UHGV virus genome: UHGV-0134932
DNA length: 49,858 nt
From: a virus
Strand: one strand, 5' to 3'
Shown: one piece after another, positions 32,741-33,471 of the stretch
Position numbering within the stretch: the stretch's first letter is position 1
How the letters are laid out: each line of letters starts with the position of its first letter
Position numbers and translations under genes: made by a program
Notes under the pieces: generated by a model
Told to the model about the DNA's origin: nothing
Database searches by the model: none
The model's input: the letters and a program-made list of their open reading frames with translations, nothing else

Positions 32741-32899
32741 TGGTTATCCCTCAATAAAAGTGACATATTTATTAGATTGCGGTGCCGAGTGCCTCCCGGT
32801 GACGTTAACCAGTTAACAATTAACGCCGGAATGTTTAACCATTAAGGAGGATTGTTTTAACTGTTCCGCGTGCGCTTAGCCGCATTCACCGCAACGGAA

Positions 32900-32957
32900 A
32901 GAGCATTCCTGGTGGACCTGTAGATTGGGATATGAACCCGTTACAGGAGAATGCTCT
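32900..32957. repeat. Long imperfect hairpin element A with conserved loop core (tagattgggatatgaacccgttac)
   Basis: gagcattcctg...caggagaatgctc inverted repeat; loop shares about 25 nt with element B. Confidence 0.5.
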
Positions 32958-33152
32958 TACCTGTTACGTGCTCCGTTTCGTGGAGCTAACGGCGGGTGAT
33001 CGGGCCGCACCAGACTGGACTTATTTCAGCGTTATGCTCATGCCAGAGAATCAAACTGTGATGGTCGGTGCTGAACTCCGACACAGGGTTGTAGCAAGCC
33101 CCGCAAAGCGCGCACTACTGTAGTTGCGGCACATCAGCCTGTGCATTCACCA

Positions 33153-33242
33153 CAATGTTGAGAACACTGGTTGTCACGCTGCAACGCAACATTTATTCGT
33201 AGATTGGGATATGACCCCGTTACGCCAGTGTTCTCAACGTTG
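33153..33242. repeat. Long hairpin element B (18-bp perfect stem) with the same conserved loop core
   Basis: caatgttgagaacactgg...ccagtgttctcaacgttg; loop contains tagattgggatatgaccccgttac. Confidence 0.5.
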
Positions 33243-33471
33243 TAGTGCCGGTTACGGTTCCGGCCAGGCCTCTTCCTCAACGGGGTGTTCTCCTTACGGA
33301 CTACCGTTTATTGGTCGTTCCTGCGGTTTATGTTGTGAAGCCAGATGCTTATCTTCTGGTTGCTTCAAAGAGCTGCACTTCCTCACAACGGTAAGGGTAC
33401 TTCGTAGGGATTCGAACCCTCTGCCAAGCTCGGCGATCTCCGACGTCGCAAAATACCCTTACCTGTTGTGC

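Follow-up and report, generated by a model that had tools for sequence, protein, structure and literature searches.

Ribonuclease III (RNase III) cuts mostly paired RNA helices of about two turns (at least 20 bp) and requires no particular sequence. At the R0.3 to R1.3 sites of phage T7 and in the stalks of rRNA operons, hairpins stand between the units of a polycistronic RNA, internal-loop imperfections steer the cleavage and the leftover stems stabilise the upstream RNAs; rRNA operons also release tRNAs from the same precursor. In the Qin prophage of Escherichia coli K-12, the 190-nt precursor of DicF RNA has a 5′ end that is made by RNase III, and the precursor is lost in an rnc mutant, according to a preprint (bioRxiv 10.1101/2023.04.14.536235, citing Faubladier 1990). 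Here, we describe four hairpins, A to D, which are homologous to a hairpin at this Qin site and likewise lie between the units of an operon, in the P1-like phage genome UHGV-0134932 (the window hereafter, that is, the whole stretch of 49,858 nucleotides that was analysed). The four hairpins belong to a single family of structured RNA elements and, on balance, are probably substrates of the host RNase III which punctuate a polycistronic RNA.

The hairpin-bearing stretch is located between tciA and the genes for tRNA-Thr and tRNA-Asn (33472-33625), all on the minus strand, and positions 32743-33471 are 99.7% identical to P1 (query positions 124-729). In the P1 reference genome (NC_005856), the C1-controlled ban operon consists of the promoter/operator (Pban), a dicF-like region, trnA, trnT, tciABC, trnI and ban; in the window, this operon runs on the minus strand and includes tRNA-Asn and tRNA-Thr before tciABC. 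The reference annotates the hairpin-bearing stretch as two plus-strand open reading frames (ORFs), upl and plp, and a preprint on the P1vir transcriptome contains nothing about it. An earlier note on this DNA, made from the sequence alone, had flagged 580 bases of it as holding two related hairpins (A and B) and a degenerate tRNA-like element (C), which were proposed to be RNA processing signals, remnants of tRNA turnover or a structured RNA family not explained by the annotated genes. The flagged bases contain three hairpins of one family (family 1), one strong module of a second family (family 2) and spacers.

One hairpin family defined by its basal stem

A, B, C and D form one family (Table 1), the defining trait of which is the conserved basal stem and not the loop core. 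The family-1 stem comprises 19 bp with a bulged A and a U.U mismatch and carries an apical head that is highly variable between copies. On the minus strand, A, C and D share the arms 5′ CACAACAGGUAAGRG... and 3′ ...CYCUUWCCGUUGYG, of which B has a diverged version. The helix plan is complete in A (6 bp, 1-nt 5′ bulge, 2 bp, 1x1 mismatch, at least 10 bp), where CGUAAC-A-GG-U-AAGAGCAUUC.. pairs with ..GAAUGCUCUU-U-CC-GUUGCG (arms at 32896-32908 and 32949-32961); in C, the bulge is present and the mismatch is closed (U-A), whereas D has the mismatch and no bulge, and B reads 6 bp, a C.A mismatch and 14 bp. The stems preceding the heads measure 19-23 bp in the four hairpins.

The heads are built from different parts. 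That of A includes a 25-nt core, GGGUUCAUAUCCC, which recurs in B with 24 of 25 positions identical (32920-32944 versus 33199-33223), as the earlier note had recognised. This core is dispensable; it is deleted from A in the relative Ro157c2YLVW, in which the rest of the hairpin is retained. The stem of B (CUACAAC-GUUGAGAACACUGG) has arms of 23 nt (33148-33170 and 33225-33247) which are 91% complementary, and its head combines the core with a second small hairpin; the perfect stem of 18 bp formerly attributed to B reduces to a perfect run of 14 bp, which on the plus strand is extended through a G.T. C begins 1 nt past the CCA of tRNA-Thr and consists of a 21-bp basal stem (arms at 33390-33402 and 33451-33463) and a head made of a D-arm-like hairpin, GCGACGUCGGAGAUCGC, and a perfect T-arm-type hairpin, AGGGUUCGAAUCCCU (33407-33421, minus strand). 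The loop core of B, AACGGGGUCAUAUCC (33207-33221), is 80% complementary over 15 nt to 33279-33293, upstream in the same RNA, which could be long-range pairing or chance; such pairing was set aside, the 7-bp complementarity being too short to distinguish from chance.

All four hairpins fold far more stably than expected by chance, with minus-strand z-scores from −5.1 (A) to −8.0 (B) and none of 200 shuffled sequences as stable as the original, and the plus strand folds more weakly at every one of them (Table 1). The existence and location of A, B and C as first described are thereby borne out, with the difference that they are not two kinds of element but copies sharing one basal stem, to which D is added as a fourth.

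To characterise the family, a pattern joining the two arm ends, AACAGGTAAG N38-66 CTTWCCGTTG, was scanned against viral contigs. It occurs in at least 120 of them, most of which are 30-55 kb long and hence not P1-like, and yields 76 distinct versions. What these versions keep is the inner stem (GAGCAUUG / CAGUGCUC) together with the flanks; the heads, 30-50 nt long and not a multiple of three in length, are mutually unrelated. In a set of 50 diverse copies, 94% of the 19-bp stem is paired, with double changes at seven pairs, a result matched by none of 500 shuffles; the U.U mismatch is found in 46 of the 50 and the bulged A is kept. Among 98 distinct best-strand copies, the outer pairs, which are fixed by the search pattern, also show compensatory changes (GC/UA/CG/AU), the mismatch is U.U in 67 copies and U-A in 21, and U.G or G.U pairs are frequent at four stem positions, at one of them in 61 copies.

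A covariance model, R1, built from 50 copies in other phages, detects exactly four sites over the entire window, namely, A, B, C and D, all with E ≤ 1.8e-6. Applied to 76 further loci, R1 finds numerous additional copies, some of them diverged, and the strand asymmetry seen in the window recurs there. In 22 diverged members that were folded, the plan is kept and the sequence altered (GG/CC to CG/CG or UG/CA). By R1 score and by folding energy, the operon strand is ahead at each of the four window sites and at most other sites that were examined. The elements are thus an RNA structure on the operon strand; C had been assigned to the minus strand from the beginning, and the same strand proves to be the informative one for A and B as well. 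No family for these hairpins was found in Rfam at gathering or permissive thresholds, and the Rfam microRNA-precursor matches were dismissed as generic long-hairpin matches. Copies are also present and structured in other phages. Covariation, conservation and the lack of an Rfam family support the earlier suggestion of a structured RNA family that the annotated genes do not explain.

Probable RNase III processing and competing explanations

The link to RNase III comes from the Qin prophage. R1 recovers a family member in E. coli K-12 at NC_000913 1649170-1649259 (35.6 bits, E 7e-9), approximately 120 bases upstream of dicF. Position 1746 of the Qin locus (L135 in our set), which a count of 190 nt from the annotated 3′ end of dicF reaches, falls within the 3′ arm of the hairpin (1734-1758), the only long helix predicted at that position; a simple promoter scan of the Qin dicF locus predicted no promoter. 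The preprint cited above further states that the upstream ydfA transcripts are also lost when rnc is mutated, consistent with a stabilising role. The stems of A to D, at 19-23 bp, have the length of an RNase III substrate. We prefer RNase III processing as the explanation of the hairpins because the Qin homologue coincides with an RNase III-dependent end and because the stem length suits the enzyme, a choice which, as far as the coincidence goes, agrees with the original proposal of RNA processing signals.

For the P1 copies, we infer cleavage and its consequences as follows. A to D lie within the C1-controlled ban-operon RNA, on the minus strand of the window. The traits of the family are a conserved basal helix, a freely varying head and a position abutting tRNAs or tRNA-like small RNA (sRNA) scaffolds. 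RNase III would cut the basal helices and split the long precursor into 4 units: an RNA resembling the tag-coding part of transfer-messenger RNA (tmRNA); the two tRNAs, Asn and Thr, that D and C flank; the family-2 scaffold RNA, which lies between hairpins B and A; and, after A, an STnc100-like leader with the tciABC-tRNA-ban mRNA. Each cut would leave a stem remnant shielding the upstream 3′ ends and a tail with a 5′-monophosphate, from which RNase E, RNase P and exonucleases may finish the downstream tRNAs and sRNAs.

Several observations weigh against this assignment. The coincidence in Qin depends on a gel-sized length of 190 nt that we mapped onto the genome, the published cleavage position '813/814' not being convertible to genome coordinates. 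Although RNase III is indifferent to sequence, distant phages share the nucleotides of the basal stem and keep its bulge and mismatch, and this conservation may hint at another specific partner. In addition, the heads fall into discrete conserved types, some with covarying T-loop hairpins, so that head conservation exceeds that of an unconstrained loop. Finally, B and D have modest R1 scores (28.6 and 35.3 bits).

The same features of the heads raise the possibility, which we consider unlikely, that the hairpins are display scaffolds, the stem serving biogenesis or stability and the hypervariable head being the functional part, which, once released or exposed, would be a small RNA or a mimic of a tRNA elbow that acts on factors of the host or of competing phages. 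Discrete head types indeed recur with conservation of their own: the head of the C type (D-like and T-arm hairpins) is kept in three different stem backgrounds, and the T hairpin of the AGAGUUCGAYUCUCU type covaries (GCAGAG/CUCUGC versus GUAGAG/CUCUAC). The neighbouring family-2 modules, which are related to STnc100/PasD, sRNAs that differ in their seeds, follow the same design of a conserved scaffold with a variable centre, and a C-type hairpin precedes the tmRNA-tag-like element by about 55 nt in an unrelated viral contig (L028). However, most heads share no common motif, and the deletion of the head core of A in Ro157c2YLVW, which leaves the hairpin otherwise intact, counts against the head as the functional part. 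A broader proposal, to which we attach a low probability, is that the hairpins, along with the tRNA-like scaffolds after them, constitute a phage system for making and diversifying small RNAs, in which processing of the RNase III/RNase P type would release heads or centres, some of them acting in trans. One possibility within it is that the tRNA-elbow-like head of C partners with the adjacent tmRNA-derived RNA, which resembles the coding piece and itself has no tRNA-like domain.

It is improbable that the hairpins work independently of RNase III, as barriers to 3′ exonucleases or as folding insulators between the tRNAs and sRNAs, comparable to REP elements within operons. Long stable stems directly beside tRNAs and sRNA scaffolds would suit this role, and the missing U-tract means that the hairpins are not terminators. 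Nevertheless, a hairpin located 1 nt past the CCA of tRNA-Thr would block 3′ exonucleolytic maturation unless an endonuclease cuts it, and the Qin member coincides with an RNase III-dependent end.

Decay of tRNA genes, through gain and loss in the P1 tRNA region, is a still less probable origin. It would account for the T-arm-type and D-arm-like hairpins of C, the former with a loop that conforms to UUCRANY (AGGG-UUCGAAU-CCCU), and for the UUCGAYU hairpins of other copies, and tRNA content does vary at these positions among relatives (L002 2766-2852 and L003 1416-1502, among other loci): D6, P7 and CMS-2020a carry tRNA-Ser(UGA), which in D6 and P7 occupies the position of the spacer between the family-2 module and A, Ro157c2YLVW has tRNA-Tyr between tRNA-Asn and tRNA-Thr, and some contigs have tRNA-Arg(UCU) in place of tRNA-Asn. 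Yet neither ARAGORN nor the Rfam tRNA model (RF00005), even at E up to 10, recognises a cloverleaf at 33384-33470, in A or in B, and ARAGORN calls no tmRNA in the elements. In C, a 7-bp acceptor and a discriminator-CCA were not found; its closing helix is 21 bp long, and 6 nt separate the T hairpin from the 3′ arm. C is thus tRNA-like without being a canonical tRNA, just as it had been described. Nothing in tRNA corresponds to the basal stem, tRNA likeness is absent from most of the 76 head types, the loop in the core of A and B is non-canonical (UUCAUAU / GUCAUAU), the T hairpins covary, which indicates maintenance and not decay, and the family is also present with no tRNA nearby (lambda, Qin). 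As a general explanation, remnants of tRNA turnover are therefore not supported: the stem is not derived from tRNA and the T-arm-like heads are kept up with covariation.

Very improbable is also a role at the DNA level without RNA function, the repeats being recombination linkers or inverted repeats like those of miniature transposable elements (MITE-like) that shuffle cassettes. Relatives do differ by whole units, family members are found at moron sites and at the boundaries of mosaic segments, a hybrid of the B and A hairpins occurs in SJ46, and P1, P7 and JL22 differ by deletions ending in hairpin arms. However, compensatory changes and strand-specific G.U pairs indicate that pairing is selected in one strand, the orientation always follows transcription, the four window copies lie within 1.1 kb on one strand with none dispersed, and recombination between repeats is an expected by-product of their presence. 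The coding of Plp and Upl on the plus strand, for which ORFs of 125 and 63 codons and the NC_005856 annotation speak, is scarcely credible: plp is frame-split, truncated or interrupted by a stop in JL22, P7, Ro157c2YLVW, SJ46, CMS-2020a and a second P1 isolate, upl has no match in D6, P7 and SJ46 and one that begins only at residue 4 in Ro157c2YLVW, neither has a significant Pfam match, no promoter-like site was found in 32700-34400, and the ORFs are built from hairpin arms, with the upl ATG inside the loop core of A and the plp 3′ end antisense to tRNA-Thr, so that both are probably spurious ORFs and not genes. Functions of the hairpins as terminators or promoters were rejected as well, there being no U-tract at the hairpins, a single terminator-like site in 32700-34400 (34098-34117) and no promoter-like site in the same interval.

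Neighbouring RNA modules and distribution

D is placed between the tmRNA-tag-like element and the tRNA pair. Hairpins D and C bracket tRNA-Thr/tRNA-Asn, the family-2 module is enclosed by B and A, and the tciA leader comes after A. The Rfam tRNA model scores the Thr/Asn pair at 72.9 and 74.5 bits. The features are collected in Table 1, where R2 is the model of family 2, built only from other phages.

Table 1. Hairpins, RNA modules and genes of the array in the window
Feature	Position	Strand	Evidence	Folding energy, minus/plus strand (kcal/mol)
Hairpin A, family 1	32890-32968	-	R1 64.5 bits, E 4.7e-17 (plus strand, 21.8 bits)	−35.0/−29.4
Hairpin B, family 1, divergent stem	33148-33247	-	R1 28.6 bits, E 1.8e-6 (plus strand, 23.4 bits)	−48.1/−42.1
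Hairpin C, family 1, earlier 'degenerate tRNA-like element'	33384-33470	-	R1 56.8 bits, E 8.5e-15 (plus strand, 32.2 bits)	−41.6/−34.4
Hairpin D, family 1, beyond the originally flagged span	33826-33912	-	R1 35.3 bits, E 2e-8 (plus strand, 29.0 bits)	−48.4/−33.6
Family-2 'tRNA-like scaffold' module, directly after hairpin B	33054-33154	-	R2 76.4 bits, E 1.8e-19	
STnc100-like family-2 module, directly after hairpin A; forms the tciA leader	32775-32893	-	R2 26.5 bits, E 2.4e-5	
tRNA-Thr(UGU)	33472-33547	-	ARAGORN; Rfam tRNA	
tRNA-Asn(GUU)	33550-33625	-	ARAGORN; Rfam tRNA	
Spacer between the family-2 module and hairpin A	32970-33053	-	Sequence	
Spacer between hairpins C and B	33248-33383	-	Weak family-2 match at 5′ end	
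tciA (TerB family), first protein gene downstream of the RNA array	32306-32740	-	Pfam TerB 54.4 bits; P1 annotation	
upl ORF (32932-33123) and plp ORF (33124-33501)	32932-33501	+	P1 annotation	

Family-2 sequence follows most family-1 hairpins. Its consensus consists, in order, of UGUGGUGAAU; the hairpin GCGCAGGCUGAUGCGC; about 15-150 unrelated bases; the hairpin GCCGGAGWUCAGCRCCGGC; and a terminal CACCACA which pairs with the first seven bases. These modules have an acceptor/D/T-like spacing, as in tRNA. In the window, the closing helix of the module after B is 7 bp long (UGUGGUG / CAUCACA); the 5′ hairpin of this module is GCACAGGCUGAUGUGC, its centre is variable, and its 3′ hairpin, GUCGGAGUUCAGCACCGAC, abuts the closing helix. 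For the module after A, the Rfam STnc100 model (RF02076) gives 43.0 bits at 32778-32893, against a gathering score of 47, and covers model positions 31-147 only; most family-2 copies are missed by RF02076 at the gathering score. A leader homologous to this module precedes kilR in Rac and dicB in Qin. STnc100 and PasD have been described as related prophage sRNAs, of which PasD is associated with Hfq (preprint 10.64898/2026.05.13.724894). In JL22 and one P1 isolate, the interval between C and B holds an extra family-2 module and an extra hairpin (C′), the JL22 module scoring 77.9 bits with R2 (L004 1284-1417); in the corresponding spacer of the window, R2 gives 16.6 bits (E 0.015) at 33331-33387. 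The spacer between the family-2 module and A ends in a small hairpin, GCUCCACGAAACGGAGC (32970-32986, minus strand; 5 bp, 7-nt loop), a motif that recurs 5′ to family-1 hairpins in numerous unrelated viral contigs. A weak R2 match on the plus strand (46725-46812, 19.8 bits, E 0.002), distant from the array, may be due to chance.

Upstream of the hairpins, the dicF-like region (34081-34182, minus strand) ends at a terminator-like hairpin with a U-tract, the one at 34098-34117 mentioned above. Since this sole terminator-like site lies upstream of them, the tRNAs, tciABC and ban need read-through unless another promoter exists.

Between the dicF-like terminator and D lies the tmRNA-tag-like element (approximately 33915-34090, minus strand), which is 71-73% identical in unrelated virulent phages (Ackermannviridae and Schitoviridae). 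In both phages that were checked with R1, PD205 and phiEa2809, it is followed by a family-1 hairpin. It contains a start-less frame (33997-34029), UAAAU GCA AAC GAU GAU CUG AUG AUG GUA GCG GCC UAA, encoding ANDDLMMVAA; the tag of E. coli SsrA is ANDENYALAA. The frame is free of indels in five phages (ANDDLMMVAA in the window, ANDNEFKVAA, ANDDVVLMAA, ANDNAYLMVA and ANDNAFLMAA). Rfam tmRNA_permuted matches all four elements tested below threshold, scoring three at 24-33 bits and that of phiMAM1 at 19 bits (E ~1); only the resume context and the tag are spanned by the match. The pattern of resume context and tag occurs in at least 120 viral contigs, and ARAGORN predicts a complete permuted tmRNA in 60 of 132 loci, with none among those of the P1 type. 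In the P1-type elements, an acceptor strand, a T-arm/CCA piece and a tRNA-like domain were looked for and none was found.

Two further arrangements were seen around such elements. In the unrelated viral contig L028 (44.5 kb; 4298-4650), the C-type hairpin mentioned above precedes a tag element encoding ANDDLMLAAA*, and a second family-1 hairpin follows, an order reminiscent of a permuted tmRNA gene, although neither a CCA nor acceptor pairing was found there. In PD205 and Serratia phages, odd tRNA-like genes lie 110-130 nt upstream of the tag element (L231 1496-1567, L233 1506-1597 and L232 1508-1597); their labels are 'tRNA-Pseudo' or tRNA-Ala(cgc) and, for those of 90-92 nt, 'tRNA-Cys', and they have poor anticodon arms and no G3.U70. 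Elsewhere in the window, a C4 antisense RNA (5696-5783, minus strand, 76.7 bits) adjoins an isrK-family RNA (5828-5906, minus strand, 62.4 bits), in the P1 immI region.

Family-1 hairpins are most commonly located in the leader of a late operon, a few hundred bases upstream of holins, and copies are co-oriented with the downstream genes, which include holins of three Pfam families, TerB, kilR and dicB. The lambda copy (NC_001416 44787-44862, R1 65.4 bits) lies between tR′ and the holin gene S and starts about ten bases past the U-tract of tR′; no RNA feature is annotated at this hairpin in NC_001416 or J02459. The annotated orf-64 (44621-44815) extends with its 3′ end into the 5′ part of this hairpin. 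According to the title of a 1988 paper (Daniels, Subbarao, Blattner and Lozeron, Virology 167:568), RNase III processing sites are reported for the Q-dependent late transcript of lambda, with which the lambda hairpin may coincide. Other copies are found upstream of TerB genes, in mEp390 downstream of a prophage repressor, in epsilon15-like phages within an insert that contains tRNA, has the opposite orientation and lies between the terminase and portal genes, and in virulent phages of the Schitoviridae (PD205) and Ackermannviridae (phiEa2809). tRNA genes adjoin the hairpins exactly: tRNA-Thr ends one base ahead of the 5′ arm in the P1-like loci examined, and in four unrelated contigs, the final G of the 3′ arm is where tRNA-Arg(UCU) and tRNA-Gly begin. 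The Thr/Asn pair of P1 is 84% identical to the pair in N4-like phages.

A scan of genome contigs yielded 92 stretches, 82 of which were classified: 40 are chance-like, in agreement with a rough hand-made estimate of chance, 18 are identical to lambda and 24 are credible. The credible matches come from 21 assemblies, 20 of Enterobacterales (approximately 16 genera) and a 4-kb contig labelled Martelella alba. The exact lambda version is present in 18 non-enteric assemblies (Pseudomonas, Bradyrhizobium, Kitasatospora, Enterococcus and others), several of the contigs being short and of low coverage, and is likely to represent contamination with lambda DNA.

Collectively, an array of structured RNAs replaces the doubtful P1 protein annotations plp and upl, and one RNA element, missing from Rfam, is common to P1-like, lambdoid, epsilon15-like and N4-like phages and to Ackermannviridae. 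It would link the RNase III processing of Qin DicF with that reported for the late RNA of lambda, and offers a simple testable model of how tRNAs and prophage sRNAs (DicF and those of the STnc100/PasD type) may be released from antiterminated or repressor-controlled transcripts. R1 and R2 can be used to annotate the element, to locate the processing boundaries of phage sRNAs and to flag spurious leader ORFs.

Comparison with known systems

The resemblance to DNA repeats is limited. Like REP/ERIC elements and attC sites, the hairpins are imperfect palindromes, conserved at the ends and variable in the centre, that lie in intergenic DNA which is transcribed. Unlike REP/ERIC, they are undispersed, restricted to phage operon leaders and fixed in orientation with respect to transcription; the attC core GTTRRRY is unmatched, the 3′ arm ending in GTTGTGG or GTTGCGG, and no integrase search was made. 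With tRNA-like structures (the tmRNA domain, YrlA and plant mitochondrial t-elements), C and some other heads share a T-loop hairpin, and C also has a D-arm-like one; moreover, t-elements, like the hairpins, are found where processing is expected. The hairpins differ in having no cloverleaf, no CCA and no match to the tRNA model. A YrlA match (25.6 bits, gathering score 69) was discarded, as it covers the two real tRNAs and not the hairpins.

STnc100 concerns the neighbours of the hairpins and not the hairpins themselves: the module after A shares with it the closing helix (GGUGAAU..CACC) and both the 5′ and the 3′ hairpin, and the module after B has the same scaffold, both scoring below the Rfam gathering threshold. 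With the T7 sites and rRNA stalks there is no sequence relationship, although the conserved bulge and mismatch of family 1 recall the internal loops by which cleavage of T7 sites is steered. The T7 sites have no hypervariable heads, and the arms of the rRNA stalks enclose the product, whereas those of the P1 hairpins enclose only a short head.

The dicBF site of Qin is a homologue of the P1 hairpins, not a mere analogue, as reflected in its R1 score. Its helix follows the plan of the P1 family (6 bp, bulge, 2 bp, mismatch, long helix), and its setting is similar, with a repressor-controlled prophage operon, an RNA of the DicF type and an STnc100-like leader before the gene of a cell-division inhibitor. 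P1 differs from Qin in having four copies, interleaved with real tRNAs and a family-2 module, and a dicF-like RNA upstream of the hairpins; cleavage in P1 is predicted, whereas the RNase III-dependent end in Qin is published. Hairpins of this kind were thus already known, and it is the P1 members and the family-level picture that are new.

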